A DNA stretch of 64,000 nt from a plasmid. The notes beneath the pieces were generated by a model. It ran no database searches. It saw only the letters and a program-made list of their open reading frames with translations, and was not told the origin of the DNA. Made by a program: the position numbers and the translations under genes. Shown piece by piece: positions 7,620 through 52,141 of this stretch; the first letter of the stretch is position 1; every line of letters starts with the position of its first letter. The stretch lies in the sequence record NZ_CP024444.1. The stretch is one strand, 5' to 3'.

Positions 7620-7635
7620 GCCATCGATTTAAAAA

Positions 7636-7662: not shown

Positions 7663-7674
7663 TCCTCCGTTGCC

Positions 7675-9296: not shown

Positions 9297-9302
9297 AACA
9301 AT

Positions 9303-9334: not shown

Positions 9335-9536
9335 AATTAAATTTCCGGTAAATCGACGGGACGAAATAAAACGCTCTAAATGCGTTTTATAGCTTACTTA
9401 AACCTTTAAACGACCAATGTACCAACACGATATCAGACAGCGGTTAAACGCGAAATTTGACGCCTTATCGCGTGTCTATTTATCTAACTGGCTGGCTTGA
9501 TGAATAATTCCACTTCAACACGCCAGCAATCACCTT

Positions 9537-19993: not shown

Positions 19994-20204
19994 AATCTTT
20001 CCTAAGAAGAAGATTTAAGATTAATGTTTTAAATGTCTACTATTACTACCCTGCAATACTGATTGGGTGATAAAAGCAAAGTTATTCTACAATAAACTTT
20101 CATACTGTGTCCTTGTTTTCAATTCCTAAAACCAAAGACTTTTGTTTGAAACCTCGCATCAATAAATTTTATTTCATTATAAACATATCAAATTATGAAT
20201 TAAA

Positions 20205-21189
20205 TACCCCACTCTCAACACTTTTAAGTGGGATTGAAACAAAGAAGGCATGAACTTAAACTTTAATCAATGACCAAAAAGATTAGAGGATAAGCCATGC
20301 CCATAGATGAATTTATCATTAAAATCTATCTAATGGTAGATGACTACTACAAAAAGATTGTAACAAACCGCCTAAGACAAGGCGGATATGCACCTAAACT
20401 GACCGACAGTGAAATCATCACCATGGAGTTAGTGGGTGAATTTTTACAGATGGACACCGATTCACAAATCCATCAGTATTTTAAACAGCATTGGCAAACA
20501 TGGTTTCCTAATCTAGGCTCATACCCCAACTTTGCTAAGCAGTGCGTTAATTTGCTACAAGTAAAAACTTTGATACAACAGCATATCGTTAAACAGTATG
20601 GACAAGACAACATTCATTTTATTGATGGCTTTCCAATCCCTGTGTGTCAATATGCCAGAGCCTATCGGCATAAAACCTTCAAGTACGAAGGTAGTTATAG
20701 TTACTGCGCCTCAAAGCAACAAAAATATTTCGGCTTTGAAGGGCATTTACTTATCAATCTATCGGGCATGATAACGAATTTTACCTTTGCCTCTGCCAGA
20801 ATAGATGAAAGACTCGTTGCACCTGATATGCTTGATGATATTAAAGGTTTATTGGGGGCAGATATGGGTTATATTAGCCCTGATTTATCCGAGTATTGCT
20901 TCAAGCGATGTGTTGATTTGCAAACACCGCTTAGAAAAAATATGTCCGATAAAAGACCAATCAGTGTCCTTAATCGTCTTAAAAATGCTCGTCGCAATAT
21001 TGAGACAGTAATTGGTCAGTTGTCCGAGCGGTTTAATATGCAAAAGGTTAGAGCGAGAGATTTATGGCATTTATCCCACAGATTTATGCGTAAAATCTTG
21101 GCTCATAACTTCTGCTTTGTAATTAATAAACAGTTAGGTAATCCGCCACTTCAGTTTGAACTGCTTATTTCAAGTTGAGAGTGGGGTAT
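20205..21189 (+). mobile_element. IS982-family insertion sequence, copy 1
   Basis: Terminal inverted repeats ACCCCACTCTCAAC ... GTTGAGAGTGGGGT enclose a 293 aa DDE transposase. Confidence 0.8.
20297..21178 (+). CDS. IS982-family transposase
   Basis: Motif YCASKQQKYFGFEGHLLINLSGMITNFTFASA matches the IS982 DDE core. Confidence 0.85.
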   Translation: MPIDEFIIKIYLMVDDYYKKIVTNRLRQGGYAPKLTDSEIITMELVGEFLQMDTDSQIHQYFKQHWQTWFPNLGSYPNFAKQCVNLLQVKTLIQQHIVKQYGQDNIHFIDGFPIPVCQYARAYRHKTFKYEGSYSYCASKQQKYFGFEGHLLINLSGMITNFTFASARIDERLVAPDMLDDIKGLLGADMGYISPDLSEYCFKRCVDLQTPLRKNMSDKRPISVLNRLKNARRNIETVIGQLSERFNMQKVRARDLWHLSHRFMRKILAHNFCFVINKQLGNPPLQFELLISS

Positions 21190-23846
21190 TAATAGGAACT
21201 TTTCAACTCATTTGCTAAAAATGATGCAGTGCGACTATCAAGGTTCTGTGCTACCTGTTTTGGTGTTCCTGCCACAACAATATTCCCACCAGCATTTCCA
21301 GCACCTGGTCCCACATCAATCACCCAATCTGCTTGTGCAACGGCACGCATATCATGCTCAATCATAACCACGGTATTACCCGCATCGACTAATCGCTGCA
21401 ATTGAACTAACAATCGATCTACATCTGATGGATGCAAACCTGTAGTTGGCTCATCAAGTATATACAGTGTATTTCCACGCTGATTGCGTTGCAGCTCGGT
21501 CGCCAATTTAATACGTTGCGCTTCTCCACCAGATAGTTCAGTCGCTGGTTGCCCTAAACGTAAATAACCAAGACCAATTTCCTTTAATAATTGTAGTGAA
21601 CGAGCAATCGAGACCTCTCCATCAAAAAAATCACGTGCTTCATTGACGGTCATTTCTAATACTTCAGCAATATTACGTCCATTCCAGCGAATTTTCAGAG
21701 TGTCATCATTATATCGAGCACCATGACATGTCGGACAAGGGGCATATACACTTGGCATAAACAATAATTCTACACTGACAAAGCCTTCACCTTCACAAGT
21801 TTCACATCGCCCTTTAGCCACATTAAATGAAAAACGTCCAGCATCATAATGAGCTTGGAGAGCTTCAGGAGTCCCAGCAAATAACTTTCTAACATGATCA
21901 AATAAACCCGTATAAGTTGCCAGATTAGAACGTGGAGTACGGCCAATTGGTTTTTGATCAACCTGTACCAGACGCTTTATAGCCTCCACATCACCAGCTA
22001 GAGAACCTCGTGTAACCTCGGTAACCAACATTCCTTCATTTAAAGGATTATCTTCATTATTGTTTTCAGTTTCAGATTCATTGCCTAAATATGAAAGTAC
22101 TAACTCAGGTAAAGCTTGAGAAACGAGACTAGATTTACCTGAACCTGAAATACCTGTAACTGCTGTAAGTACACCAAGAGGTATACGAGCATCAATATTA
22201 TGCAGGTTATGTCGGTAAATATTGTTAAGTTCAAGCCAACCAGAGGGTGTACGTCCATAACTTTGAGTAACTGGGATTTTATTAAATAAATAACTTGCAG
22301 TACGTGAAGCTGAAATCTCACTTAAACCCTGAGGTACCCCACTATATAAAATATTACCACCTTGCTCTCCTGCATCTGGTCCAACATCCACTAACCATTG
22401 AGCACGACGCATGAGCTCTAAATCATGCTCTACAACAAATACGGAGTTCCCAGCATCTCTTAATTTATCGAGGGAATCATATAATGACTGACTATCTGAA
22501 GGATGTAATCCAGCAGACGGCTCATCCAGTACGTAAACTACACCAAATAGCATAGAACTTAATTGTGTTGCTAAACGCAAACGTTGTAACTCTCCAGCTG
22601 AAAGAGTCGGTGTGGCTCTATCTAATGTTAGATAACCAAGGCCTAACTGGCGTAATTGATTTAAACGCCCTACCACACCACTTGCTAAACGCTGGGCAGC
22701 AATTTTCTTTTCATCTGAAAGTGCTGAAGTACGTCTTACATCTGGAGATACAGAATGCACTGCTCTACCTGTTGTTGCTCGTTCAGATCTATCAAGTTGG
22801 GTTACTTTATTATTAGTCTTTTCGCCAGCATCATGAGCGTCGAAATCGCCAAGAACAATGGGTTCAAGCAGGCAAGTTAATTTATCCAAAGAAAGTTGCA
22901 TAAACTCACCAATATCTACTCCTGCAAAGGTAATAGATAAGGCTTCTGGCTTAAGTCGTTTACCATGGCAGGAAGGGCATATTTTTCCTTCCATAAAACG
23001 TGAAACACGTTTTTTCATCAACGTACTTTGGGTATTAGCAAAAGTATGAAGGACATAGCGACGAGCACCAGTGAAAGTGCCCATATAGCTGGGTTCTAGT
23101 TTACGTTTAAGTGCAGATTGAGTCTCAGCGGGGCTTAAACCAGCATAGACAGGAACTGTTGGGGTTTCTTCAGTAAATAAAATCCAATCTCGATCCGATT
23201 GCGGTAAATCTTTCCATGGTCGATCAACATCATACCCTAGGGTTACTAGGATATCGCGTAAGTTTTGCCCGTGCCAAGCAGGTGGCCATGATGCGATAGC
23301 TCTCTCACGAATACTGAGTGTCGGGTCAGGAACCATTGTCGATTCTGTAACTTCATAAATGTGACCTAAACCATGACAGGTAGGACAAGCACCTTGAGGA
23401 GTGTTCGGCGAAAAGTCCTCGGCATATAACATTGGCTGATCGGCAGGATATGCACCAGCACGCGAATAAATCATTCGAACGAGACTTGATAAAGTTGTTA
23501 CACTTCCAACAGAAGAACGGGTATTACTTGCACCACGTTGTTGTTGCAATGCGACTGCTGGTGGTAGACCATCAATAGCATCAACATCTGGTACTCCTGC
23601 CTGATCAATTAAGCGTCTTGCATAAGGTGCAACAGATTCGAAATATCTTCTTTGTGCTTCAGCAAAAATAGTCCCAAAAGCAAGTGATGATTTTCCCGAA
23701 CCCGATACACCTGAGAAAACAACAAGTGCATTTCTTGGGATAGAAACATCTACATCCTTAAGGTTATGTTCACGCGCACCTCGAACTTCAATACAATTAT
23801 TAGATAAAGTAATGTTATTGGGTTCACCAAAAGAATGTGTTTTCAT
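21189..23846 (-). CDS. UvrA-family ABC ATPase paralog (excinuclease ABC subunit A-like, 885 aa)
   Basis: Two ABC ATPase modules (GVSGSGKSSLAF and GISGSGKSSL) with interleaved CxxC zinc modules. The N-terminus (RGAREHNLKDVDVSIPRNALVVFSGVSGSGKSS) is UvrA-like. It is shorter than the canonical 940 aa UvrA. Confidence 0.85.
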   Translation of the reverse strand: MKTHSFGEPNNITLSNNCIEVRGAREHNLKDVDVSIPRNALVVFSGVSGSGKSSLAFGTIFAEAQRRYFESVAPYARRLIDQAGVPDVDAIDGLPPAVALQQQRGASNTRSSVGSVTTLSSLVRMIYSRAGAYPADQPMLYAEDFSPNTPQGACPTCHGLGHIYEVTESTMVPDPTLSIRERAIASWPPAWHGQNLRDILVTLGYDVDRPWKDLPQSDRDWILFTEETPTVPVYAGLSPAETQSALKRKLEPSYMGTFTGARRYVLHTFANTQSTLMKKRVSRFMEGKICPSCHGKRLKPEALSITFAGVDIGEFMQLSLDKLTCLLEPIVLGDFDAHDAGEKTNNKVTQLDRSERATTGRAVHSVSPDVRRTSALSDEKKIAAQRLASGVVGRLNQLRQLGLGYLTLDRATPTLSAGELQRLRLATQLSSMLFGVVYVLDEPSAGLHPSDSQSLYDSLDKLRDAGNSVFVVEHDLELMRRAQWLVDVGPDAGEQGGNILYSGVPQGLSEISASRTASYLFNKIPVTQSYGRTPSGWLELNNIYRHNLHNIDARIPLGVLTAVTGISGSGKSSLVSQALPELVLSYLGNESETENNNEDNPLNEGMLVTEVTRGSLAGDVEAIKRLVQVDQKPIGRTPRSNLATYTGLFDHVRKLFAGTPEALQAHYDAGRFSFNVAKGRCETCEGEGFVSVELLFMPSVYAPCPTCHGARYNDDTLKIRWNGRNIAEVLEMTVNEARDFFDGEVSIARSLQLLKEIGLGYLRLGQPATELSGGEAQRIKLATELQRNQRGNTLYILDEPTTGLHPSDVDRLLVQLQRLVDAGNTVVMIEHDMRAVAQADWVIDVGPGAGNAGGNIVVAGTPKQVAQNLDSRTASFLANELKSSY

Positions 23847-23928: not shown

Positions 23929-25221
23929 TTAATTCTTAGGAATAGATTTACTAATATCTTCTTTTCTTACATTTGTGATAAGTCTTGAACCACGATAACC
24001 CACACTATGATTCCACAACCAACTTAAGGCAACGTTTAAACGACTTTGCACACCAATCAAAAAGTAAATATGTATAAGTTTCCAAAACCACCAAGCGAGT
24101 ACTCCTTGTAGTTGAAATTTACCCATATCAACAACTGCGCGACTACGTCCAATTGTTGCTAGATTACCTTGATGATGATATTTAAATGGCTCTTTTATAT
24201 CTTTGCCTTTTAATCGATTATCAATGGTTTTCGCAACATATTTTCCTTGTTGTTTGGCGGCTGGTGCTATACCTGGTACTAACTTACCATCTTCCATAGT
24301 AACTGCCGCGGTATCACCAATGACGAAAATTTCAGGATGCCCTGTCACAGTTAGATTTGAATCAACCAACACACGCCCTGCACGATCAGATTCAACATTT
24401 AACCAACGAGCTGCTGGAGATGCTTGTACGCCAGCAGCCCAAATAATTGTTTTTGCAGGTAGCTGTTTTCCATCATAAACAACACCATCTTCTGAACAAC
24501 TTGTCACTGGTGTTCCAAGTACAACCTCAACACCAAGTTGTTCAAGTGCCTGACGGGTATAGCTAGACAACTTTTCAGGGAAAACTGATAATAAACGTGG
24601 ACCGGCTTCAATCAATACCACTCGAGATTCACGAGGATCTATCAAACGAAAATCTCGAGATAACGTATCTTTTGCCAGTTCTGCAATAGTTCCTGATAGC
24701 TCAACTCCCGTCGGACCACCTCCAATGATCACAAATGTTTGTAAAGCCTTTCTTAAGATTGGATCTTTGGTACGTTCAGCTTCTTCAAAGGCAGCCAGAA
24801 TTCGTTCTCGAATATTTGTTGCATCCCCCAAGGTTTTTAAACCTGGTGCAAATCGCTCCCATTCATCATGACCAAAATAAGCATGAGTAGCACCTGTCGC
24901 AATAACTAAAGTGTCATAATGCAACTTTTCGCCATCATCAAGAACAACTAGTCGGCTACCCACTTCAATGCCCTGCACCTCTCCCATTAAGGTACGGACT
25001 TCAGGACGGTTTCGAAAAATATATCGAATAGGCCAAGCGATTTCAGATGTTGATAAAGATGAGCCTGCGACTTGATACAATAATGGTTGAAATAGATGGT
25101 GATTTCTTCTGTCGATAATAGTTATATCGACATTGACACCAGCGAGACTATTTGCAGCCTCTATCCCTCCAAAACCAGCTCCAATAATAACAACACGATG
25201 ACGTCCTGTAGACTTTACCAT
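23929..25221 (-). CDS. ndh: type II NADH dehydrogenase (NDH-2)
   Basis: Two Rossmann dinucleotide-binding motifs (VVIIGAGFGG and FVIIGGGPTG) and a C-terminal membrane-anchor helix. Confidence 0.8.
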   Translation of the reverse strand: MVKSTGRHRVVIIGAGFGGIEAANSLAGVNVDITIIDRRNHHLFQPLLYQVAGSSLSTSEIAWPIRYIFRNRPEVRTLMGEVQGIEVGSRLVVLDDGEKLHYDTLVIATGATHAYFGHDEWERFAPGLKTLGDATNIRERILAAFEEAERTKDPILRKALQTFVIIGGGPTGVELSGTIAELAKDTLSRDFRLIDPRESRVVLIEAGPRLLSVFPEKLSSYTRQALEQLGVEVVLGTPVTSCSEDGVVYDGKQLPAKTIIWAAGVQASPAARWLNVESDRAGRVLVDSNLTVTGHPEIFVIGDTAAVTMEDGKLVPGIAPAAKQQGKYVAKTIDNRLKGKDIKEPFKYHHQGNLATIGRSRAVVDMGKFQLQGVLAWWFWKLIHIYFLIGVQSRLNVALSWLWNHSVGYRGSRLITNVRKEDISKSIPKN

Positions 25222-25240: not shown

Positions 25241-26071
25241 CTAGCACTTAAGAGCTAAAGCATGATGCACAATATGTGCACGAATAAAGCTCGCAATGAA
25301 GTAATAACTATGGTCGTAACCTTCTCTTAGGTTTAAAACTAAAGGGTGATCCATTTCAGTACATACTTTTCGTAGTCTTTCTGGTTGAAGTTGGCTATCA
25401 AGAAATTCATCCCCTAAGCCTTGATCAACTAATAATGGAATTTTATGAATTGAATTCTTAACTAATTCAACAGTATCGTATTGTTTCCATGATTCCTGAT
25501 CAGCTCCTAAATAAGCATTGAAAGCTTTTTGTCCCCAAGGAACTATGGATGGATTAACAATAGGCGAAAAAGCTGATACGCTCAGATATAATTCGGGATT
25601 ACGTAAGGCAATCGTTAATGCCCCATGTCCTCCCATTGAATGACCACTAATACCGCGTTTTTGTGACGCAGGGAAATGAGCCTCAATTAGCGCTGGAAGT
25701 TCATGCACAATATAATCATACATTTGAAAATGTGCAGCCCAAGGATCTTGAGTGGCATTCAGATAAAATCCAGCACCTTGACCGAGATCATATGCAGGAT
25801 CGTCAGCTACATTTTCTCCACGAGGGCTAGTATCTGGTGCAACAATAATAATTCCATGTTCAGCCGCATATTGTTGCGCTGCAGACTTCGTAATAAAATT
25901 TTGTTCTGTGCAGGTAAGACCACTGAGCCAGTACAGTACTGGTAATTTATCTTGATGCACCTGAGGAGGCAGATAAATAGCAAATTTCATCATGCATCCG
26001 AGTACTTCAGATTTATGTTGATAAACGTCTTGCCAACCACCAAACATTGCATGATGTTCAACACGATCCAT
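25241..26071 (-). CDS. fghA: S-formylglutathione hydrolase (esterase D)
   Basis: N-terminus HAMFGGWQDVYQH, nucleophile elbow GHSMGGHGAL and a C-terminal H of the triad. Confidence 0.88.
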   Translation of the reverse strand: MDRVEHHAMFGGWQDVYQHKSEVLGCMMKFAIYLPPQVHQDKLPVLYWLSGLTCTEQNFITKSAAQQYAAEHGIIIVAPDTSPRGENVADDPAYDLGQGAGFYLNATQDPWAAHFQMYDYIVHELPALIEAHFPASQKRGISGHSMGGHGALTIALRNPELYLSVSAFSPIVNPSIVPWGQKAFNAYLGADQESWKQYDTVELVKNSIHKIPLLVDQGLGDEFLDSQLQPERLRKVCTEMDHPLVLNLREGYDHSYYFIASFIRAHIVHHALALKC

Positions 26072-26144: not shown

Positions 26145-27479
26145 TTATTTTTCTGGTATTACATCACTATGCTTTTGTCTAATCTTTCGCATTGTCCACC
26201 AAATAGAAAACATCACTAACGGTACTAATATCGCAATTGTGAATTCAGGCGCTGCTATATCATGAACTGAAGGTATACCTTTCACTAAATATGCAAGTAA
26301 ACTAACAACATAATAAGAAATCGCAGCAACGGATAAACCCTCTACCGTTTGTTGAAGGTGTAATTGTTGTCTAGCACGATTATTCATTGATGTGAGCAAA
26401 TCTCGATTTTGACGCTCTAACTCAACATCGATCCATGAACGCAAAAGAGAAATAGCACGTGTTAATTTTTCAGAAAGAGTAGCTTGGCGTTCTTTAACAG
26501 ATTGACATGTCCTCATCGCTGGAGCGATACGACGCTCAAGAAAGTCGTGCCATGTGCAATATCCAGATATAGACTTTTCTGAAAGTCTATTCAAACGTTC
26601 TTCAACGAGTTCATAATAAGCACGACTGGCGCCAAATCGGTAAAGATTCGCTGCCACATTGGCTTCTAGTTCAGTTGCAAGCGTCGTAAGTTCAAATAGC
26701 AGTACATCATTATCACGTCTTAATTCTGTTCCTTTATTCATTTCATCAGTGATCGCGGCAAGCCGTAGCTCCATCTGACGTAGTTCAAAGGTCATTGTTC
26801 GAATTAATGGCAAAGCAAGTAATGCCAATGTTCGATATGTTTCAATCTCTAATAAACTTTGAGCAAGTGCGCCTGCACGAGCCTCTGTCAAACCACGATC
26901 AAGAATAAGAATCCGGGTCAGACCGTCATTATCTTGTCTGAAATCAGTCAAAATAGCTGCTGTTTCATTTTCTACTAGTGAATAGCACAAACTGACTGTA
27001 TCAAAACGATTTACCAATTTTTCAGATTCAGTAGCCCATGGCAATACTTGCAAGCAGATACCTGAGATAATTTCACCTGGTGGAACAAAGCCATTTTTAA
27101 ATGGATCTTCACCTTTAGGCAATCCCGTTGGTACATCTAGTTCTGCACACCAAAGATATGTGGAAAATTCTGTGTGTTTTTCACAATGCAAATTTCCTTC
27201 ATCCCAAGTCAAACCATGAAGTGGTGATTCTTCTTTTTGAGTTTTTTTCAAGCCAAAGCGATCTGATAGTTCATCCAGCGCAATTTGGTCCTTGCTTGGA
27301 TCTCCCTCTGTCAAGAAAGCTAACTGCAATAAGTTTCGTGGAGCTTGTATTAATAAAGGTGGACGGGCATGTACCTCTCCCACAGCCCTCACTCGATCTG
27401 CATGTGCTGGCATACCATATACAAATGCAGTCGAGGAAGTTTGTGGGGTCGTTTTGATAGCGGGTTCTTCTTTCATCAC
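26145..27479 (-). CDS. hypothetical protein with two C-terminal TM helices, inside the formaldehyde-detox operon
   Basis: 444 aa. Soluble N-terminal domain with a coiled-coil-like middle, and two C-terminal hydrophobic helices. Function unknown. Confidence 0.6.
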   Translation of the reverse strand: MMKEEPAIKTTPQTSSTAFVYGMPAHADRVRAVGEVHARPPLLIQAPRNLLQLAFLTEGDPSKDQIALDELSDRFGLKKTQKEESPLHGLTWDEGNLHCEKHTEFSTYLWCAELDVPTGLPKGEDPFKNGFVPPGEIISGICLQVLPWATESEKLVNRFDTVSLCYSLVENETAAILTDFRQDNDGLTRILILDRGLTEARAGALAQSLLEIETYRTLALLALPLIRTMTFELRQMELRLAAITDEMNKGTELRRDNDVLLFELTTLATELEANVAANLYRFGASRAYYELVEERLNRLSEKSISGYCTWHDFLERRIAPAMRTCQSVKERQATLSEKLTRAISLLRSWIDVELERQNRDLLTSMNNRARQQLHLQQTVEGLSVAAISYYVVSLLAYLVKGIPSVHDIAAPEFTIAILVPLVMFSIWWTMRKIRQKHSDVIPEK

Positions 27480-27510: not shown

Positions 27511-28089
27511 TTAAGCTTCTTTATACGTTCCTTTCTGCTTAGCTGAATGTGTAGCTAAAGCATCCATTAAGCCCGGTGACAAACAATCATAAGGTTCAAG
27601 TTTAAGTTCACGTAAACGATTGCGGATAGCATCCATATTTGATGGAGGAGTTCCACTTTCAATCACAGACGAAACAAAAGCTGCAAAACCAGGAGCAGAC
27701 CATCCTTCTTGTGGAGAAAGCTCCGTATGAACAAAGTCTAAACCGTAGAATGCATGATCTTTATTTTCGATACGACCAAAAAGGTGCGCTCCACATTCAC
27801 GACATGCGTGACGTTGAATTGCAGCATTCTCATCAACAATATGAAGCTTTTGTGGATTTGCTACAACGCTTACTTTGTCACGTGGTACAACTGCAATTAC
27901 AGCGAACGTAGCACCTTCTGGTTTCCAGCATTTAGTACATCCACAAGCATGGTTATGCAATGTTTGAGCACCAACCTCAACTTGAACTTTATCCGTTGAG
28001 CATAGACATTCTAAGATTCCACCGTCGAAGTTTTCTTGGCTTGGACGGATCCCATGATCAAGAGAAGGGTGTATATGAATTTCGCTCAT
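27511..28089 (-). CDS. gfa: glutathione-dependent formaldehyde-activating enzyme (Gfa/CENP-V family)
   Basis: Cys clusters [11 protein letters not shown] and [11 protein letters not shown]. Start moved to the MSEIHIHP Met, which has an AAGGAAAG RBS (the ORF track began 15 codons upstream). Confidence 0.8.
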
Positions 28090-28164
28090 TTTACTTTCCT
28101 TAAGATGAATTGATCGACATGGTGTGAAATTCACACCATGGATTTTTAATATGAGATTAGTTAA

Positions 28165-29286
<1,122 letters not shown>

Positions 29287-29332: not shown

Positions 29333-29608
29333 TTAACGAAGATACGATCTAACGATAGAAATAGTTTCGTCAATTGACTTTCTTTGAGAGTTAGTTCTAG
29401 TTTCATTATCTGGAAATTCTTCTCGCAAATAACTTTCTAGTACAACCGCCATTAAACCATTTACAGCCCCACGGACTGCGGCTAGCTGATGAAGAATTAC
29501 ACCACACTCAGTACCTTCATCAAGTGCCTGCTCAAGAGCAGCGACTTGTCCTTTGATACGTCTAACACGAGTAAGCGCTTGTTTCTTCTCACGATCATTG
29601 TATGGCAT
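29333..29608 (-). CDS. frmR: FrmR-type (CsoR/RcnR family) formaldehyde-responsive repressor
   Basis: 91 aa. Pro2, Cys35 (TECGVIL) and the conserved LTRVRRIKGQ / AAVRGA helices. Near-colinear with E. coli FrmR. Confidence 0.88.
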   Translation of the reverse strand: MPYNDREKKQALTRVRRIKGQVAALEQALDEGTECGVILHQLAAVRGAVNGLMAVVLESYLREEFPDNETRTNSQRKSIDETISIVRSYLR

Positions 29609-29674
29609 ATATTCAACCTTCTCTCATTTAGATTTAGTCATCATACTATACTCTCTTATCGTTAAACTCATAAT

Positions 29675-29700
29675 ACTATACCCCCCCATGGTATAAAAGG
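29675..29700. promoter_or_regulatory. FrmR/RcnR type-1 operator (TATACC-C5-AT-GGTATA) in the frmR promoter
   Basis: AT-rich inverted repeat flanking a C7 tract, about 70 bp upstream of the frmR start. Read directly. Confidence 0.6.
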
Positions 29701-29902
29701 GGTAAATTAAAAATAATTAATATTTTTTGAAGAAAATTATCTTTTAGTTATACTATTGCTTTGCATAATTAATTTAATATTATTAAAAATCAGTAATTTA
29801 GTAAAAAAATATTAAAAAGAAACCTTTGCACGAATAAACACACAAAAGTTCATTAAATTGGTATAATACAATAAAATCAATCACCTAGCAAAAAACACGA
29901 CT

Positions 29903-30895
29903 ATGGCATGGAAACAAACAGGGCAACTCTCCCTAGCAGACAGTCTCATTAACGCTCACAAAGCCATCGAAGAATTAGATGAACTACACAACCTAATTGA
30001 CTGGCAAACTATCGAGCAAACCTTACGCCACGTTCATAGCAGTGAGCGTGGGGAATCTGCCTTTCACCCTGTCATCATGTTTAAAGTATTACTCTTACAA
30101 AAACTCTATAACCTATCGGATCCAGCCATGGAAAAACAACTGGCACGAGACTTACTATTTCGTCGCTTTGTTGGCCTATCATTAACGGATGATGTACCCG
30201 ACCATAGCACCATTTGGCGATACCACAAACACCTAGGTGAGCTTAGACTGATTGAACCATTGTTCAACCAAATCAATGAGCAACTAGCCCAACAAAACAT
30301 TTTTATCAAAGCGGGCAGTGTCAGCATCATCGATGCCAGTATCGTTGAAGCTAAAAACAAACGACCTAAGAAAGGCAAACACACCGACAATACCCAAGAT
30401 AACGAAGCCGCCTATGTCAGTAAAAAAGACAGTACAGGTAAAGTAAAAACCACCTACGGCTTTAAAATTCATCTCAACTGTGATGAAGACAGCTTTGTCA
30501 AAAAGGTTGAAACTACCCCTGCCAATGTCCATGATTCCCAATGTTTTACCACGCTGTTAACAGATGATGAATCAGCCGTGTATGCTGACAGTGCGTATAA
30601 AAGCCAAGCCCATGATGACTACCTTGCCGAGCATGAACCACCGATAAAAAATCATATTCATGATAGAGCATGGCGCAATACACCCTTAACCGAACAGCAA
30701 AAACGCAATAATACCCAAAAGAGCCAAACTAGAAACACCGTTGAGCGGGTCTTTGGACATTTTAAACTGCATTATGGGATGAGCAAAGCTCGTCATTTAG
30801 GGTTAATGCAATTTCATACCAGCACTTTGCTTGCAAGCATGGTGCATAATTTAAAAACTGCCCTAAGCTTGAAACGAAAATACGGACTCGCCTAG
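29903..30895 (+). CDS. IS5-family transposase (DDE)
   Basis: 330 aa. The N-terminal region matches the IS5/IS1182-type DDE transposase family. IS ends not defined. Confidence 0.8.
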   Translation: MAWKQTGQLSLADSLINAHKAIEELDELHNLIDWQTIEQTLRHVHSSERGESAFHPVIMFKVLLLQKLYNLSDPAMEKQLARDLLFRRFVGLSLTDDVPDHSTIWRYHKHLGELRLIEPLFNQINEQLAQQNIFIKAGSVSIIDASIVEAKNKRPKKGKHTDNTQDNEAAYVSKKDSTGKVKTTYGFKIHLNCDEDSFVKKVETTPANVHDSQCFTTLLTDDESAVYADSAYKSQAHDDYLAEHEPPIKNHIHDRAWRNTPLTEQQKRNNTQKSQTRNTVERVFGHFKLHYGMSKARHLGLMQFHTSTLLASMVHNLKTALSLKRKYGLA

Positions 30896-31337
30896 GGTTA
30901 TTGTGTCTGTTGGTTAGTAAGCTCAGCCAATAGACACAAATTTAACAACCATTTGGAGATTTTATCCATGATTTAGCCATTGTTTTGCTTATTTCATTGC
31001 CATTCTTTGTTTTTTTTCGGTTTGGTGGTATGCCTCGAGCAAAGGGGCTGTTTCGTGCAAAGGTCTCAAAAATATATTTTTTAAAAAAAAGAAAATTTAT
31101 ATTAAATATTCTTATATTAACACTTCTGTATATCAAATTATCTTTTAGCAAAAACACGCTTAAAAAATAAATAAATTAAATCAATAATTTATGTTAAAGT
31201 AAAAAAAACCTAGTAATCAAACCGATTGTTAGAAAAGAATATTTCAATTGTTTAAATTAAAATCAATTAAAATAAAACCATGATACAAATTAATCTATCG
31301 AATTTACTTAATCATTTTCTTTTTAACTAGTATGCAT

Positions 31338-32909
31338 TCAACTTGAATAATTCTTCATAAACAAATTAAAATCCATGACTTGCTGCTGCTCTAACACTTC
31401 TTGCTCAAGAAGAGACTTTTGTGCAACTGATTCAAAAAATTGTTTACGCTCATCCGTCAAAACCTGTTTCGAAAAGTTATTCAAATGTTGCTGGCATTGA
31501 TGTAAAGCGAAGTCATTAAAACCTATATTATGTTGAAACATATATGTTAAGACCTTAGAGGATGGCGTTAAGAATGAATTCTCAATTTTAGCCTGTTGAG
31601 CATATATAGCTTCTTTATGTTTATTAATATCATTTGCATGATCGAGTAAATTAGCTAGAGGTCTAATATTAGCCAACAACTCTTGAGCCCAATCATACAT
31701 AGCAATTGAACTATCTCCATTTTGGAGTTCTAAATTTGGCTTTCGCCCCTTTTCAGCCACAAGGTGAAAGTTATTATTCGCCTGATTAAGGCTATCTTGA
31801 CTTAATGATGGGCTTTTATATAAAGCACAAAATAATAAAAATGCATCCAAAAAGTAAGCTTGCTCTAAATCAATTCCTAACGAAGAAAAAGGATTAATGT
31901 CCAAACAACGTATCTCGACATACTGTACCCCACGTGCATTTAATGCATGAAGCACACGCTCACCAGAATATGGAACTCGTTTTGGTCTAATATTTGAATA
32001 ATATTCATTTTCTATTTGCAAAATATTAGTATTAAGTTGCACCCATTCGTTATTTTTATGGGTACCAATATTCGTATACAAGGGGTAAGGTGTTTCTAAA
32101 GCCTCTTTTATACTATGAATGTATGAATTGAGACTATCAAAACAAGGAGAGATAGTAGATTGTGCACTACTTTGATAACCAATCTTACTCATTCGAAGAC
32201 TAGTCGCATAAGGCAAGTAGTAAGTGTCATTATCAAATTTTTTAAATTGATCTAAGTTTTTTTTTAAAAAATTTGAATTAACCGCTGGGGATGCTCCGAA
32301 TAGATAAATCAATAGCCAACTATAACGGTGAAAATTTCGTATCATATCCATATAAATTGATGACCGATCTTTATTTTCGAAAGTAGTTATATTATCTAGT
32401 TGGTATAAAAGCTGAATTAATTGCTCAGGTAATGAAAAATTATAGTGAATACCTGCTATACATTGCATGGCCCTACCATATCGAAGAGCTAATCCTTTTC
32501 GATAAACGTGTTTAAACTTACCAATATTTGAATTGCCATACTCAGCTATAGGAATCCTTTCTTCTTCTGGCAAAAGAGAAGGCATTGATGAACTCCAAAG
32601 GTATTCATTATTTAGTTTTGTATAAACAAAACGATGAATATCATTAAGTTCTGCAAGGACCTCTGAAGCACTCAAACAAGGTGGCGTAACAAATTCCATT
32701 AATGATTCGGAATAGTCTGTAGTAATAAACTCATTTGTCAAAGCTGATCCTAGTGTTTTTGGATGCGGTGTAAGCACCAAATTCCCATTCTTCGTTACAC
32801 GCAAACATTCACGTTCTATCCCTCGCAAACACATAGTCAATAAAGGTAAATTTTCACCTAGAATATTTAGACGATGAGTATAGTGTTCATCAAATATTAA
32901 TTTATCCAT
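31338..32909 (-). CDS. gshA: glutamate-cysteine ligase (gamma-glutamylcysteine synthetase)
   Basis: 523 aa. N-terminal GIERECLRV signature and overall length and colinearity with enterobacterial GshA. Confidence 0.85.
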   Translation of the reverse strand: MDKLIFDEHYTHRLNILGENLPLLTMCLRGIERECLRVTKNGNLVLTPHPKTLGSALTNEFITTDYSESLMEFVTPPCLSASEVLAELNDIHRFVYTKLNNEYLWSSSMPSLLPEEERIPIAEYGNSNIGKFKHVYRKGLALRYGRAMQCIAGIHYNFSLPEQLIQLLYQLDNITTFENKDRSSIYMDMIRNFHRYSWLLIYLFGASPAVNSNFLKKNLDQFKKFDNDTYYLPYATSLRMSKIGYQSSAQSTISPCFDSLNSYIHSIKEALETPYPLYTNIGTHKNNEWVQLNTNILQIENEYYSNIRPKRVPYSGERVLHALNARGVQYVEIRCLDINPFSSLGIDLEQAYFLDAFLLFCALYKSPSLSQDSLNQANNNFHLVAEKGRKPNLELQNGDSSIAMYDWAQELLANIRPLANLLDHANDINKHKEAIYAQQAKIENSFLTPSSKVLTYMFQHNIGFNDFALHQCQQHLNNFSKQVLTDERKQFFESVAQKSLLEQEVLEQQQVMDFNLFMKNYSS

Positions 32910-32931
32910 ATATCAAACCTTACATTCAAAG

Positions 32932-33702
32932 TTAATGTGCACCATGAACTACCCTATTAATTAAAGTTACTATAAGAATTCCTATAAAAAGCCAAAGAAT
33001 TTGGATAATGGTATCTTTAGTTGTCCAACGCTGTTGTAATTGAGGAATTAGATCTGATAAAGACACATAAATAAAACTACTACTAGCCAAAATCATAAGG
33101 AAAGGTTGCCATTGCTGTAATCCGGCCAGTAGAAAATATCCACTTAATCCACCTAAAGCTGTCATTGCACCAGCCATAGTAAGCTTTAGTACAGCAGCAC
33201 TACGATGATTTTTCTGCCTAAGAACTACCAAATCACCCATATGATGAGGTACTTCATGTACAAGAACCGAAGCAGCTGCAATCAGCCCAAGATGTATGTC
33301 AACAATGAAAATTGAAGCAATCAAAATACCATCACCAAAACAATGGACTCCATCACCCAATAATAGTGACCAACCATTAGTTGTATGTGGCTCATGTGAA
33401 TGATTATGCTCATGTCCGTGATGCCACAATTCAGCTTTATTAAGTAGAAAAAAGAAAACTAAACCAATTAGAAGTGCTAAAAAAAGTTGATGTGTATCTA
33501 TATTGCTTTCAAAAGCCTCTGGTAACAAATGTGTAAAACTTGTTGCTAATAACGCACCAGCTGCTAGACCTAAAAAGCCTTGTTGTACATAACTATCTTG
33601 ATTGTTAATAGCTGCCCCAGCTCTCGTTACCAATAAGTCTGCGATCAAAACGCTACCTATTCCTACGACCAGAGTGACTAGGGTAATAATGAAAAGTGAC
33701 AT
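32932..33702 (-). CDS. ZIP-family divalent metal transporter (ZupT-like)
   Basis: Eight TM segments, a His-rich loop HHGHEHNHSHEPH, and the ZIP signature HEVPHHMGDLVVL in TM4/5. Confidence 0.75.
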   Translation of the reverse strand: MSLFIITLVTLVVGIGSVLIADLLVTRAGAAINNQDSYVQQGFLGLAAGALLATSFTHLLPEAFESNIDTHQLFLALLIGLVFFFLLNKAELWHHGHEHNHSHEPHTTNGWSLLLGDGVHCFGDGILIASIFIVDIHLGLIAAASVLVHEVPHHMGDLVVLRQKNHRSAAVLKLTMAGAMTALGGLSGYFLLAGLQQWQPFLMILASSSFIYVSLSDLIPQLQQRWTTKDTIIQILWLFIGILIVTLINRVVHGAH

Positions 33703-33812
33703 AGATTTAATACATACCTAGTAGACAATCATTTTTAACTAATCGCATATACAAGCCGAAATTCGTTCGATACAACATCAAATTTGTAGATGTTGTATTA
33801 AGCAATCTAATA

Positions 33813-33835
33813 TACTATACCCACCTATAGTATAA
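33813..33835. promoter_or_regulatory. second FrmR/RcnR-type operator (ATACTATA-CCCACC-TATAGTAT) upstream of ZIP-gshA
   Basis: Same architecture and flanks (AATACTATACC...GTATAAAAGGG) as the frmR operator. About 110 bp upstream of the ZIP start. Confidence 0.5.
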
Positions 33836-34017
33836 AAGGGATTTTATAAAAAAGTTTAAGCCACTCAACAATTAATAGGAAATTATTTTAAATTCAATTA
33901 AATAGATACAAAAATCATGACATTCTTAATCAAATCTAGTCTATTGAGAAATTTTTATTTTTTACATTATACAAAAGAGCCTAAACAAAGGCCCTTTCAT
34001 CACTATTCTCTGAGCTC

Positions 34018-34125
34018 TTAGTATGCTAATTGAATTAAGAATCTAAAAATTCCTGCAATAACCGCTAATGTAACTACACCAATTACCCAAAGTAAGATAA
34101 ACCATCCTGTCTGTGAAAGTTTCAT
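34018..34125 (-). CDS. cydX: cytochrome bd small subunit (CydX-like), 35 aa
   Basis: Unannotated ORF MKLSQTGWFILLWVIGVVTLAVIAGIFRFLIQLAY. A single TM with a W-rich N-terminus like CydX. Lies 8 nt downstream of cydB, the canonical position. Confidence 0.5.
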   Translation of the reverse strand: MKLSQTGWFILLWVIGVVTLAVIAGIFRFLIQLAY

Positions 34126-34133
34126 ACAAACTC

Positions 34134-35138
34134 CTAATGATAACCAGCATCACCAACACGAACTTTACCTTTAAAAATCCAATATGAAAAAATGGTATAA
34201 GTCAGAATAATAGGAATGAGCAACAGTGCACCAATCAAAGCAAAAAGTTGACTATTCGCTGGGGCTGCAGCCTGCCAGATCGTTACTGAAGGTGGAATAA
34301 TATAAGGCCACAAACTAATTAAAAAACCTGTATAAGCAAGGAAGACTAAGCCTAACGTATAAATAAAAGGACTAAGTTCTTTCTTTTGTTTACATGCCCG
34401 TAAAGCCATTCCCGTAAAAATAAGTACTAATACAGGAATTGGACTAAAGTACATTAACTGAGGCTGACTAAACCAGCGTTCAGCAATTTGCGGTTGTGAA
34501 AGTGGTGTATAGATAGTAACTAATCCAAAAATAATAAATACTGAAATGATCAGTTTAGGCATCATTGAAAACATTTTTTCTTGAATTTCAGCATCAGTTT
34601 TATAAATTAACCATCCACATCCTAAAGTTGCATACAGAACGACTACACCAATACCAGTAAACACAGAGAAAGGTGTCAACCAGTCCAACTGCCCACCAGC
34701 ATAAACACCATTTAAGGTTTTAATACCCTGAATATATGCACCTAGAACTACACCTTGAAGAAAACCTGCAAATACTGAACCACTAATAAAAGCTTTATCC
34801 CACAGATGCTTAGTACGGTTTGCTTTAAATCGGAATTCAAAAGCAACTCCACGAAATATTAATGCGATCACCATCAAAATAATCGGCATATAAAGTGCAG
34901 AAAGAACTGTTGAATAAACTAGCGGAAAGGCAGCAAAAAGCCCCGCCCCACCAAGCACCATCCAAGTTTCATTACCATCCCAGACCGGAGCAACGGTATT
35001 CATTAGCACATCTCGCTCATTGGAACCTTTAATGAAAGGAAATAAAATTCCGATACCTAAGTCAAACCCATCTAGAATGACATAAATCAATACACCAATT
35101 CCAATAATGACAATCCAAATAAGAGATAAATCAATCAT
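34134..35138 (-). CDS. cydB: cytochrome bd ubiquinol oxidase subunit II
   Basis: N-terminus MIDLSLIWIVIIGIGVLIYVILDGFDLGIGIL is the CydB signature. Eight TM segments. The start overlaps cydA. Confidence 0.88.
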   Translation of the reverse strand: MIDLSLIWIVIIGIGVLIYVILDGFDLGIGILFPFIKGSNERDVLMNTVAPVWDGNETWMVLGGAGLFAAFPLVYSTVLSALYMPIILMVIALIFRGVAFEFRFKANRTKHLWDKAFISGSVFAGFLQGVVLGAYIQGIKTLNGVYAGGQLDWLTPFSVFTGIGVVVLYATLGCGWLIYKTDAEIQEKMFSMMPKLIISVFIIFGLVTIYTPLSQPQIAERWFSQPQLMYFSPIPVLVLIFTGMALRACKQKKELSPFIYTLGLVFLAYTGFLISLWPYIIPPSVTIWQAAAPANSQLFALIGALLLIPIILTYTIFSYWIFKGKVRVGDAGYH

Positions 35139-35607
35139 GGCGATTCTCCCGTATTGATTCTAGTTTATCTAAGCTTCCTTCAACCGCACTCATTGGTCGC
35201 ATCGGTGTTTGACCAACATCAGCATGTTCGCCTGAATGTACACTTAAGAATTGCGGGCCTTTATGCATTAGCTTTAACATGTAATAAATGCCAATACCGA
35301 AAACTACAAAATAAACCAGAACAAAAATAATTAGAGTTATTCCAACTTGCGATGCGGATACGGGTGACAACGCATCTTTAGTACGAAGTACATTGTAAAC
35401 AACCCAAGGTTGACGACCGACCTCTGTTGTAAACCAACCAGCTAGAAGAGCGATAAAACCTGACGGACCCATATATAATGCAAAACGTTGAAACCATTTA
35501 CTTTCATATAAACGGTCAGAACGACGCAGCCATAAGCCTAAGACGGCTAATAGCAGCATTAACATTCCCATACCAACCATGACACGGAAACTCCAAAAGA
35601 TGATCAA
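35131..35607 (-). pseudogene. cydA: cydA, C-terminal fragment only (truncated by IS3-family insertion)
   Basis: The 158 aa fragment matches the last TM helices of CydA (GRQPWVVYNVLRT). The open frame runs up to the IS3 terminal repeat at 35626, and no N-terminal part of about 350 aa is found elsewhere. Confidence 0.8.
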
Positions 35608-35720
35608 AGAATTCGGCCGATCTTCTGAACCGTCCTAGTTTTATCAGAGACAGGTTTACTTGAGTCAGGCAGCATAGCCTGACGGAATTAATGAACAATA
35701 GTACATATTTTCTGCATCTA

Positions 35721-37437: not shown

Positions 37438-38421
37438 ACCCCACTCTCAACACTTTTAGAGGGGGTTGAAACAAAAAAGGCATGAACTTAAACTTTAATC
37501 AATGACCAAAAAGATTAGAGGATAAGCCATGCCCATTGATGAATTTATCATTAAAATCTATCTAATGGTAGATGACTACTACAAAAAGATTGTAACAAAC
37601 CGGCTAAGACAAGGCGGATATGCACCAAAGCTAACCGACAGTGAAATTATCACCATGGAGATAGTGGGTGAGTTTTTACAGATGGACACCGATTCACAAA
37701 TCCATCAGTATTTTAAACAGCATTGGCAAACATGGTTTCCACAAATAGGCTCATATCCCAACTTTGCCAAGCAGTGCGTCAATTTGTTACAGGTAAAAAC
37801 TTTGATACAACAGCATATCGTTAAACAGCATGGGCAAGACAACATTCATTTTATTGATGGCTTTCCCATTCCGGTGTGTCAATATGCCAGAGCCTATCGG
37901 CATAAAACCTTCGAATATGAAGGTAGCTATAGTTACTGTGCCTCAAAGCAACAAAAATATTTTGGCTTTGAAGGACATTTACTCATTAATCTATCGGGCA
38001 TGATAACCAATTTTACCTTTGCCTCTGCTAAGATAGATGAAAGGCTTGTTGCACCTGATATGCTTGATAATATCAAAGGCTTGTTAGGTGCAGATATGGG
38101 CTATATTAGCCCTGATTTATCTGAGTATTGCTTTAAGCGATGTGTTGATTTGCAAACACCGCTTAGAAAAAATATGCCCGATAAACGACCAATCAGTGTA
38201 CTTAATCGTCTTAAAAATTCTCGTCGCAATATTGAGACGGTGATTGGTCAGTTATCACAGCGGTTTAATATGCAAAAGGTGAGAGCGAGAGATTTATGGC
38301 ATTTATCCCACAGATTTATGCGTAAAATCTTGGCTCATAACGTTTGCTTTGTGATCAATAAACAGTTAGGTAATCCCCCACTTCAGTTTGAGTTGCTTAT
38401 TTCAAGTTGAGAGTGGGGTAT
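37438..38421 (+). mobile_element. IS982-family insertion sequence, copy 2 (same orientation as copy 1, about 96% identical)
   Basis: Same terminal repeats CCCCACTCTCAAC ... GTTGAGAGTGGGGT. The transposase differs from copy 1 at about 10 aa. Confidence 0.8.
37529..38410 (+). CDS. IS982-family transposase
   Basis: 293 aa, a paralog of the 20297-21178 protein. Confidence 0.85.
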   Translation: MPIDEFIIKIYLMVDDYYKKIVTNRLRQGGYAPKLTDSEIITMEIVGEFLQMDTDSQIHQYFKQHWQTWFPQIGSYPNFAKQCVNLLQVKTLIQQHIVKQHGQDNIHFIDGFPIPVCQYARAYRHKTFEYEGSYSYCASKQQKYFGFEGHLLINLSGMITNFTFASAKIDERLVAPDMLDNIKGLLGADMGYISPDLSEYCFKRCVDLQTPLRKNMPDKRPISVLNRLKNSRRNIETVIGQLSQRFNMQKVRARDLWHLSHRFMRKILAHNVCFVINKQLGNPPLQFELLISS

Positions 38422-38615
38422 TAAATAGAAAAAATAAAGAAACTCTAAAATATTGGTAAAATTAAAAACCTAAACCTAGTCTTTCATCTTTATTACCAAA
38501 ACAACCCACATCTAATTATTATCCAAACCCCATATATCACGTCATGCAATCGCTAAAATTTGGTTTGGTCTAATGGCTAATGTGATTAATTTATAGAGGC
38601 TTTTTTAAATTTATT

Positions 38616-39255
38616 TACGCTCAAATCGGTTTTTATACGTTATTTGCCATTTTCTTACGCTCAAATCGGTTTTTATACGTTATTTGCCATTTTCTTACGC
38701 TCAAATCGGTTTTTATACGTTATTTGCCATTTTCTTACGCTCAAACCCATTTTTATACGTTATTTGCCGTTTTCTTACGCTCAAACCCATTTTTATACGT
38801 TATTTGCCGTTTTCTTACGCTCAAACCCATTTTTATACGTTATTTACCATTTTCTTACGCTCAAACCCATTTTTATACGTTATTTACCATTTTCTTACGC
38901 TCAAACCCATTTTTATACGTTATTTGCCATTTTCTTACGCTCAAACCCATTTTTATACGTTATTTACCATTTTCTTACGCTCAAACCCATTTTTATACGT
39001 TATTTGCCATTTTCTTACGCTCAAACCCATTTTTATACGTTATTTACCATTTTCTTACGCTCAAACCCATTTTTATACGTTATTTGCCATTTTCTTACGC
39101 TCAAACCCATTTTTATACGTTATTTGCCGTTTTCTTACGCTCAAACCCATTTTTATACGTTATTTGCCATTTTCTTACGCTCAAATCGGTTTTTATACGT
39201 TATTTACCGTTTTCTTACGCTCAAACCCATTTTTATACGTTATTTGCCGTTTTCT
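38616..39255. repeat. 16 x 40 bp perfect-period tandem direct repeat array (iteron- or centromere-like)
   Basis: Unit TACGCTCAAACCCATTTTTATACGTTATTTGCCATTTTCT. The variants are CAAATCGGT / CAAACCCAT and GCCAT / ACCAT / GCCGT / ACCGT. There are no unique spacers. Confidence 0.95.
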
Positions 39256-39730
39256 TACGTTCTTGAAGGACTTAATCATATCTCTATATTTTCATCCAAG
39301 TTTTCATGTATCTTGGCGTTGAATTCGCTTAAAGGAAGTTTTCTGTTTCTAGCTTATGAAGTTCTCGCCTTTCTTACCAAAACATACTGAATTTTTTTAT
39401 TAATAGCTAATGTCAGATGCGCTCTAAGCTCGATGGTTGGGCAATCTTCACTTGAAATGTCATTAATGCTTTTTAAAATTTCAGTTTTTTAAAAATAGGT
39501 TCTGACAATAACTGCTTCATCCCAAAAATTTAATAAGAATTTCTTGAGTAACGGGAGATAGACAATTTTTTATCACGGTTTGCGCCGCTTCTGCCCTATA
39601 TGTAATGCCCTATATTTAACTTTTGAAATAGCGATAGCTTGATTTAGGTTTTGTCCAGCCAAAAACCGCAGGACTTTTATTCTGTCGCCTTATGGCGACA
39701 ACGATTCGGGTTTTTGGGCTGTTGGGCTAA

Positions 39731-50975: not shown

Positions 50976-51313
50976 GGGTGTGTCCTTTTGGTTGGGGGTC
51001 GGAATTGAGCCTATCTCGTTTCCATGATGCTATTATAACGGTTTTAGCGTGTTTAATATAACGGTTTTAGCGTTTATTTATCGATTTTCCGATAAACGGT
51101 TTTAACGTTCACCACGCCCACCACCCACCTACCCCGACCCTTAGTCATGCTTGCCTTAGAGTTCGCTTGCGCTAGGTGCATCCTTGCTACCGGATAAAAC
51201 CATCGCCAAAAAAAATGCTATACAGGTGTATAGCATTGACTGGTGTGACTAAGCTTCATTAGACTAGACGGCATCAGGCATGTCATGACTGCCGTATGGG
51301 TTGGCATAGTCAG

Positions 51314-52141
51314 TTAGCTGACTTGTTTTTGTCCCTGAAAGATGCTCACGCCCATACCGACATCGTCATGTTTTTGTTGATATAAGCCGTCTTTAAATTG
51401 GTAGTCTTTTTCATACGAATGGTAGAAAGCACAGGCGATTTCGAGTATTTCATATTTATGCCAACGCCAAAACGATAAGGCTTCATCGCCCATATTCTCA
51501 ATTTGCTCTGCGTTAAAGTCTTTCCATTGTTTGATGGTATGACACTGGCATCCAATACGGATGGTATCGGCACAAATAAAAATTGGCCAGTTGTAATGAT
51601 ACAAAAACATCACCTTAAAAGGAAATAAGGCGGTCATGATGTTTGTTCCCCAAAAAATAGCGTAGCGGATGTCTGCTTGCTGAAAGTCGGCACAGCTAAT
51701 AGTGGCGTTAAAAAAATTGGTTGCTAGTAAATCTGCCTTATCAAAACTTGCTTGCACAAGACTTGCGCCCGTGAATTGGGCATACTGACAGTTGGCATCA
51801 TGAAAATTACTAAAATTAAAATTGGCATGACTGGCATGAATGCTTTTGAGATTGGCGTGTTTAAAGCGTCCCTTCAGTAGCGTTGCGCTAGTAAAATTAG
51901 CCCCTTGTAAATCAGCGTTTTCAAAATTGACATGATTTAACGTCGCCTTATCAAAACGCGCATACTGTAAATTGCATCCGCTAAAATTGGCATTGGTTAA
52001 GTCCATGCCGATAAAGTCAGCACCTTGTAAATTGGCACCGCTAAAATCATGCCCCACAAGACTGTCGCCCTCGATGGTTGCAAGGATGGCTTTTGATTTG
52101 AAGGAATTATGCGTAAGGTAGCTTTGAATTTCGATGGTCAT
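51314..52141 (-). CDS. pentapeptide-repeat protein with C-terminal Cys module (RIGCQCHTIKQWKDF)
   Basis: 275 aa paralog. Confidence 0.85.
   Translation of the reverse strand: MTIEIQSYLTHNSFKSKAILATIEGDSLVGHDFSGANLQGADFIGMDLTNANFSGCNLQYARFDKATLNHVNFENADLQGANFTSATLLKGRFKHANLKSIHASHANFNFSNFHDANCQYAQFTGASLVQASFDKADLLATNFFNATISCADFQQADIRYAIFWGTNIMTALFPFKVMFLYHYNWPIFICADTIRIGCQCHTIKQWKDFNAEQIENMGDEALSFWRWHKYEILEIACAFYHSYEKDYQFKDGLYQQKHDDVGMGVSIFQGQKQVS

Follow-up and report, generated by a model that had tools for sequence, protein, structure and literature searches.

We analysed a 64,000-nucleotide stretch of a plasmid (sequence record NZ_CP024444.1; hereafter the window, meaning this whole stretch), in which the gene for the formaldehyde-type repressor FrmR heads an operon for glutathione-dependent formaldehyde detoxification. 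We propose that this one FrmR governs two promoters by way of 22-bp operators that are nearly identical, the first ahead of frmR itself and the second ahead of a gene for a ZIP-family metal importer and gshA, with formaldehyde co-inducing the detoxification genes and ZIP-gshA; given the sequence evidence set out below, we put the probability of this reading at roughly 0.78. FrmR, its type of operator and the glutathione-dependent pathway are already known. What appears to be new is a conserved second candidate FrmR-controlled operon, comprising the ZIP importer gene and gshA and carried on a mobile island; full-text literature searches returned no description of FrmR control of either ZIP or gshA.

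FrmR has so far been treated as the regulator of a single operon and used as a part for formaldehyde biosensors. If the proposal is true, FrmR governs a conserved multi-promoter regulon that brings in a metal importer along with glutathione synthesis; intact islands would add a terminal oxidase by way of a Cys-less paralog of the repressor. This would hint at an unstudied need for metal supply during aldehyde stress. Plasmids of clinically relevant Acinetobacter carry the island, as do plasmids of isolates from formaldehyde-exposed settings such as metal-working fluids, which makes it relevant to the tolerance of formaldehyde-releasing biocides and of methenamine.

Candidate operator sites and their putative regulator

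The two sites lie at 29673-29701 (ATACTATACCCCCCCATGGTATAAAAGGG) and 33812-33840 (ATACTATACCCACCTATAGTATAAAAGGG), are identical at 26 of 29 positions, and are the only two matches in the window; across 100 dinucleotide-preserving shuffles the 29-nt site sequence was matched 0 times (0 expected by chance). An earlier, sequence-only reading of this DNA had pointed to both sites, which do exist, but had placed them a few bases off: the palindrome that it gave for the frmR promoter at 29679-29697, TATACCCCCCCATGGTATA, is actually located at 29677-29695. Both sites share a 22-bp core that reads, in the orientation of the genes, ATACTATA-N6(G/C)-TATAGTAT, and allowing up to two mismatches this core has three matches in the window versus 0.01 expected.

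Site 2, the FrmR-type operator in the ZIP-gshA promoter (33812-33833, minus strand), is ATACTATA-GGTGGG-TATAGTAT, a perfect 8-bp inverted repeat with no mismatches. It precedes the ZIP start codon (ATG, 33702) by 109 nt, and ZIP and gshA are separated by 22 bp, much as the sequence-only reading had described (about 110 bp, with the same gap between the genes). Site 1, the operator in the frmR promoter (29673-29694, minus strand; ATACCATG-GGGGGG-TATAGTAT), has two mismatches to the palindrome and lies 64 nt upstream of frmR. A weaker site stands in tandem with it at 29643-29664 (minus strand; TAACGATA-AGAGAG-TATAGTAT, three mismatches), its centre 30 bp downstream of that of site 1 and 34 nt 5' of the frmR ATG, and is also kept in the second Acinetobacter allele of the island (L086 and L172). 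One further candidate, at 51215-51236 (ATGCTATACAGGTGTATAGCAT, two mismatches), was rejected as a third FrmR operator, as it consists of a stem and then T8 on the minus strand, immediately 3' of the stop of an open reading frame; we read it as the intrinsic terminator 3' of the frame at 51314-52141, between two pentapeptide-repeat genes.

A consensus scan places TTTATA-16 nt-TATATT across site 2 and TTTATA-16 nt-TATTAT across site 1, consensus matches of this kind occurring at background frequency. Alignment of the sites across lineages yields the consensus cTTnnATACTATAggGGgGTATAGTAT, and in most lineages a cTTg element precedes the left arm. Again as consensus matches, a -35 hexamer of the TTG type adjoins the left arm or overlaps it, and a hexamer resembling a -10 element falls within the right arm or just 3' of it. 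Resting on these matches, the placement of the operators suggests the classical position for repression by occlusion. A probable terminator, a hairpin with a U-run at 33970-34000 (minus strand), lies directly 3' of the stop of the DUF2474 gene upstream of ZIP and would set the cioA'-cydB-DUF2474 remnant apart from the ZIP promoter; its fold is weak (-14.8 kcal/mol, z=-1.5) and is conserved in L086. This hairpin suggests that ZIP-gshA is transcribed from a promoter of its own and not by read-through.

The regulator gene, frmR (29333-29608, minus strand), encodes a repressor of the CsoR/RcnR family (PF02583, DUF156) that is predicted from profile matches and residues to respond to formaldehyde. 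The protein matches PF02583 with E=5e-22 and scores 145.1 bits on the NCBIfam FrmR equivalog NF008464 (cut-off 133), versus 65 bits on the RcnR equivalog model (cut-off 138). In alignment, its N-terminus is MPYN and positions 34 to 36 are E34-C35-G36. It has both Pro2 and Cys35 and lacks His3, as had been noticed from the letters alone, with a Tyr at position 3. Pro2 and Cys35 are the pair that formaldehyde joins by a methylene bridge in E. coli FrmR (EcFrmR; PMC5146963). The positions of the RcnR/CsoR metal ligands are occupied by Tyr3, Tyr60 and Glu64, with His3, His60 and His64 missing, and Cys35 alone is present among the W-X-Y-Z ligand positions. Because the regulator has Pro2 and Cys35 and is without the metal ligands, formaldehyde sensing is favoured over metal sensing. 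The operon that frmR heads includes the gene for S-(hydroxymethyl)glutathione dehydrogenase, frmA, which starts 58 nt downstream of frmR.

Comparison with known systems places the sites close to those of E. coli, whose frm promoter (Pfrm) carries tandem FrmR sites described as ATAC/GTAT inverted repeats around G/C-rich tracts (Denby 2016, PMC5146963). In the orientation of the gene, the K-12 frmR promoter reads ...ATACTATAGGGGGGTATGCATtgacatatagAATACCCCCCTATAGTATattg..., and holds ATACTATA-GGGGGG-TATgcat and atAgAATA-CCCCCC-TATAGTAT as tandem sites 27 bp apart. The window sites have the half-site ATACTATA/TATAGTAT and the G6/C6 tract in common with it; the comparison with the frmRAB operators that the sequence-only reading proposed thus returns the same motif as at the two Pfrm sites. 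The likeness extends to the repressor family, to Pro2 and Cys35, to tandem sites at the regulator's own promoter, and to the downstream genes for FrmA and S-formylglutathione hydrolase. The island differs from the E. coli system in that its operon is longer (gfa, DUF3422, NDH2-like, uvrA), position 60 of the regulator is Tyr rather than His, the genes are plasmid- or transposon-borne, and intact islands have a third operator before frmR2-cioAB.

For the Salmonella FrmR operator, a T/A-rich inverted repeat flanking a C6 tract is required for binding (Osman et al., PMC5016687). The C6 tract with its T/A-rich repeat is a point of likeness with the Salmonella frmRA system, in which FrmR senses formaldehyde directly, although the Salmonella operator sequence has been called distinct from that of E. 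coli and serves a single target operon (PMC5016687). In both E. coli and Salmonella, FrmR is described at its own operon only, whereas here ZIP-gshA also carries an operator. The Salmonella gshA gene is chromosomal, is not described as FrmR-controlled, and matters there only as a source of glutathione (PMC5016687).

Conservation of the two-site layout

Relatives of the ZIP protein were gathered from genomes, metagenomes, plasmids and a protein collection, and all homologues of at least about 64% identity lie within formaldehyde clusters. The arrangement ZIP-gshA-frmR-frmA(-gfa/VOC-DUF3422-fghA-NDH2-like) recurs in B. paludis (L002), B. cepacia (L170, L171), Achromobacter (L166), a Pseudomonas element common to five species (L003-L007, L089), and the metagenome sequences L087, L088, L168 and L169. 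The metagenome lineage L174 has the order ZIP-frmR-frmA, and frmR and ZIP are divergent in Kozakia and in Acinetobacter sp. TR3, where plasmid pTR3_2 holds two sites inside the 216-bp frmR/ZIP spacer. In several lineages the ZIP and gshA reading frames overlap, and the two genes would therefore behave as one module.

A FrmR-type site is found upstream of the ZIP start in every FrmR-linked lineage for which upstream DNA was available except Kozakia, whose spacer holds a half-site and G-tract only; in all, ten lineages besides that of the window have the site. Its distance from ZIP is 90-124 nt, or 220 nt in L087. Seven lineages match the motif with 0-1 mismatch; the Burkholderia lineages and L174 have 2-3 mismatches, and TR3 has 4. 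Ahead of frmR there is another site, at a distance of 28-64 nt; in Achromobacter this second site precedes frmA instead. The intergenic DNA around the sites ranges from AT-rich to very GC-rich and is unalignable outside the site itself. A 34-nt block around site 2 is the same in both Acinetobacter alleles, whereas its flanking bases differ.

At up to three mismatches, none of the roughly 150 ZIP loci lacking frm genes had the motif, and generic ZIP loci (Comamonadaceae chromosomal loci, and homologues of 60-61% identity) had neither FrmR sites nor frm genes. Most lineages have one FrmR-family gene near the cluster in the DNA sampled, and therefore one regulator would suffice for both sites. 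Conservation of the site across genera strongly supports the suggestion, already made in the sequence-only reading, that a second FrmR operator ties ZIP-gshA into the formaldehyde regulon.

Plasmids of Comamonas and Diaphorobacter carry ZIP inside a formaldehyde operon controlled by a LysR regulator. In these islands (for example that of C. testosteroni MWF001), frmA is 96% and ZIP 68.5% identical to the window genes, and DUF3422, fghA, the NDH2-like oxidoreductase, uvrA and uvrB are present too. The LysR islands differ in lacking FrmR, gshA and the FrmR motif alike, and in carrying ZIP within the detoxification string with no promoter of its own. Since ZIP accompanies the formaldehyde genes under a LysR regulator as well, its link with formaldehyde would be independent of the type of regulator.

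Proposed regulation and competing explanations

In the scheme that we propose, promoter 1 would drive frmR-frmA-gfa-DUF3422-fghA-NDH2-like-(uvrA) and promoter 2 would drive ZIP-gshA, with operators of the form ATACTATA-G/C6-TATAGTAT filling the -35/-10 spacer at both. We infer that FrmR tetramers bind and occlude both promoters as long as formaldehyde is lacking, and that formaldehyde, by cross-linking Pro2 to Cys35, would make FrmR leave the DNA. Derepression would then yield the detoxification enzymes, more gamma-glutamylcysteine (and hence more of the co-substrate glutathione), and the ZIP importer. FrmA, Gfa and UvrA are zinc proteins, and the most plausible role for ZIP would be to supply them with zinc or to offset the buffering of zinc by the extra glutathione. 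More broadly, metal (probably zinc) import might be a working part of bacterial formaldehyde defence, in which a dedicated, FrmR-switched ZIP closely coupled to gshA would be needed to metalate the induced zinc proteins or to counter the buffering of zinc by the extra glutathione. Aldehyde stress and metal homeostasis would then be linked in a way not recognised before, and plasmids would have spread this link among Acinetobacter, Moraxella, Pseudomonas, Burkholderia and Achromobacter; we offer this idea tentatively and consider it somewhat doubtful. The benefit of inducing gshA is easier to see, since both Gfa and FrmA use glutathione as co-substrate; Salmonella without gshA is formaldehyde-sensitive (PMC5016687).

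Several observations weigh against joint control of the two promoters by FrmR. The promoter assignments consist of consensus matches that occur at background frequency, and the literature search found no experimental precedent for the involvement of a metal importer in defence against formaldehyde. At position 60 the window FrmR carries Tyr in place of the His of E. coli FrmR, a His that has been proposed to assist Cys35; EcFrmR variants altered at this His60 retained the formaldehyde response and had high basal activity (PMC5146963). In the Pseudomonas element, identical in five species and a TARA contig (L003-L007 and L089, at about 14988-15015), the frmR frame is interrupted by a TAA near codon 8 and lacks an in-frame start; the gene is probably inactivated, which would leave the regulon constitutive there, and conservation of the sites in these genomes may only mirror recent ancestry. 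Finally, site 2 is closer to the operator of a paralog, FrmR2 (22/22 in L086), than it is to site 1 (19/22).

This last point leads to the most serious of the rival explanations, which draws on the intact islands of A. baumannii ABNIH28 plasmid pABA-2f10, A. pittii plasmid pApW20-1, and metagenome contig L086. Their genes are co-directional, in the order uvrB, frmR2, cioA, cydB, DUF2474, ZIP, gshA, frmR, frmA, gfa, DUF3422, fghA, oxidoreductase, uvrA, and a third operator, ATACTATrGGTGGGTATAGTAT, lies 33-34 bp upstream of frmR2 (gene and operator at 16740-17015 and 17049-17070 in L082, 18427-18702 and 18736-18757 in L172, and 3644-3916 and 3589-3610 in L086). FrmR2 (WP_001146945.1), encoded ahead of cioAB, is 62% identical to FrmR and keeps Pro2, with Gly at position 35 instead of the sensing Cys; presumably blind to formaldehyde, it scores below the FrmR equivalog cut-off, yet its own promoter has a near-perfect FrmR-type operator. 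The window has lost both frmR2 and the third operator: tblastn found a single FrmR gene and no second one in the 64 kb, and a motif scan of the same DNA found no third operator of the frmR2 type.

Site 2 could thus serve FrmR2 in Acinetobacter-type islands and be an orphan operator here, with ZIP-gshA constitutive or weakly controlled by FrmR. The FrmR2 operator is identical to site 2 or matches it at 21/22 positions, spacer included, and the regulator that it would serve is missing from the window. However, the ZIP site occurs alongside one FrmR-family gene in the DNA sampled from Burkholderia, Pseudomonas, Achromobacter, L087, L168, L169 and L174, and the promoters of both paralogs share the motif, which makes cross-binding likely. 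We therefore regard an orphan site 2 as unlikely, and prefer control of both promoters by FrmR.

Less probable still is that the regulator senses a metal (Zn, Co or Ni), the fallback offered in the sequence-only reading, with ZIP as its primary target and the formaldehyde genes as secondary ones. Salmonella FrmR does bind Zn(II) and Cu(I) in vitro, and the single change E64H gives it a metal response in vivo (PMC5016687, PMC4528141); ZIP is, moreover, itself a metal transporter. RcnR, which acts at two type-1 sites at rcnR-rcnA (TACT-G6-N-AGTA), belongs to the same family and likewise has a G/C tract in AT-rich inverted repeats, but its sensing of Ni/Co depends on His3, Cys35, His60 and His64, and its target is an exporter. 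The window protein has none of these histidines, and with Tyr3, Tyr60 and Glu64 retains Cys35 as its only W-X-Y-Z ligand; its scores (145 bits against the FrmR cut-off of 133, 65 against the RcnR cut-off of 138) likewise disfavour a metal sensor. The operon that the regulator heads is wholly one of glutathione-dependent formaldehyde detoxification, and a repressor released by its effector would turn the importer on when metal is already plentiful, the opposite of what is needed.

It is most improbable that site 2 is a dead leftover from an frmR promoter that was duplicated or moved, or an AT-rich palindrome that arose by chance. In favour of this, the two sites resemble each other for a few bases past the palindrome (AAAAGGG flank), and the region is rich in insertion sequence (IS) elements. 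Against it, the AAAAGGG flank is not found in other lineages, the shuffles gave no matches, and a site with at most one mismatch over 16 specified positions is expected at about 1e-8 per position by uniform-base arithmetic. Conservation contradicts it as well: ten other lineages have a site equally placed with respect to ZIP, within intergenic DNA that cannot be aligned and that varies widely in G+C.

Gene content and mobility of the island

The genes of the locus form a minus-strand string, in transcription order cioA', cydB, DUF2474, ZIP, gshA, a plus-strand IS, and frmR to the uvrA-like gene. At its upstream end is the remnant of a cioA'-cydB-DUF2474 operon (34018-35625), without the frmR2 gene and operator that precede it in intact islands; it consists of a 3' fragment of cioA (35131-35625), truncated by an IS3-family element, cydB (34134-35138), and a gene for a 35-aa protein (34018-34125), all on the minus strand. 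The sequence-only reading had labelled this small gene cydX, but its sole match is to DUF2474 (PF10617, E=1e-5), which is also the RefSeq name of an identical gene, and it matches no CydX model.

ZIP (32932-33702, minus strand) encodes a transporter of the ZIP family with a His-rich loop (PF02535, 95.5 bits). Aligned to BbZIP (5TSA), its HCFGDG and HEVPHHMGD segments fall on the metal-site motifs of TM4 and TM5, and ligand-type residues are kept. An assignment to ZupT was rejected, the protein scoring 42 bits against a cut-off of 252 on the NCBIfam ZupT equivalog. The leader upstream of ZIP is about 100 nt long in nearly all lineages, and an Rfam search of it returned no known RNA element. In the window it holds a 10-bp hairpin or palindrome, ATACAACATC-N9-GATGTTGTAT, at 33761-33789, with modest folding (z=-2.4); this was rejected as a conserved element, since part of it is disrupted in the L086 allele and RNAalifold gave no conserved pairs across nine lineages. 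The ZIP leader of pTR3_2 (L084, about 8925-8958) has a 15-bp palindrome containing GGTTATAAAATAACC, which we take to resemble a Zur box; the window leader has no equivalent.

Next in the string is gshA (31338-32909, minus strand), for glutamate-cysteine ligase. Between it and the frmR promoter lies ISAba23 (29819-31067, plus strand; IS5 family), with a 5-bp target duplication, AAAAA; the edge of this element is 124 bp from site 1, and both promoters are left intact. Downstream of frmR, and likewise on the minus strand, follow frmA/adhC (28165-29274), the S-(hydroxymethyl)glutathione dehydrogenase gene (TIGR02818, 728 bits); gfa (27511-28134), assigned by profile matches to S-(hydroxymethyl)glutathione synthase; a gene for a DUF3422 protein (26145-27479), a conserved island member on the basis of its domain match and neighbourhoods; fghA (25241-26071), for S-formylglutathione hydrolase; a gene for an NDH2-like NAD(P)/FAD oxidoreductase (23929-25221), whose homologues in other islands have Pyr_redox_2 and NDH2_C domains; and a gene for a uvrA-like excinuclease subunit (21189-23846), the last of the co-directional string. 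Matches to internal terminators within the frmR-uvrA string were at background level. An Rfam ribosomal S15 leader match at 26928-27039 (minus strand), in the coding region of DUF3422, is most likely due to chance (30.3 bits, below the gathering score of 39.5).

The uvrA-like gene, the NDH2-like oxidoreductase and DUF3422 are recurrent members of formaldehyde islands across several genera, and uvrB, absent from the window, is present in intact islands. This suggests DNA repair (uvrA/uvrB) and NADH re-oxidation modules dedicated to such islands. Fungal Starship ssf clusters are similar in combining mobile formaldehyde resistance with a uvrA of bacterial origin (PMC11623301); they differ in being cargo of a eukaryotic transposon, and the excerpts of that report mention neither FrmR regulation nor a ZIP gene. 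The frmRAB genes of A. baumannii ST19 (PMC13436141) are a different locus, of enterobacterial origin.

The island DNA in the window is 99.6-100% identical to pABA-2f10, which has no IS between gshA and frmR and in which cydB is interrupted by an IS3 element. The fragment is bracketed by two direct IS copies (20206-21195 and 37438-38428) that are 93% identical and encode a 293-aa transposase. On both sides, the flanks (1-20000 and 39500-64000) are 98-99.7% identical to a 248-kb plasmid of Moraxella osloensis (CP040258.1), which has only about 1.1 kb in place of the island segment. Bounded as it is by two direct IS copies, the segment therefore looks like a composite-transposon insertion, and it seems that Acinetobacter-type island DNA (20.2-38.4 kb) entered a Moraxella-type plasmid in this way. 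Self-comparison of the window also revealed a tandemly repeated array at 38609-39259 (period about 40 bp) and, between 40 and 64 kb, many intergenic repeats of 100-200 bp, 80-96% identical, upstream of paralogous genes, three of which encode pentapeptide-repeat proteins according to the annotation of the matching plasmid.

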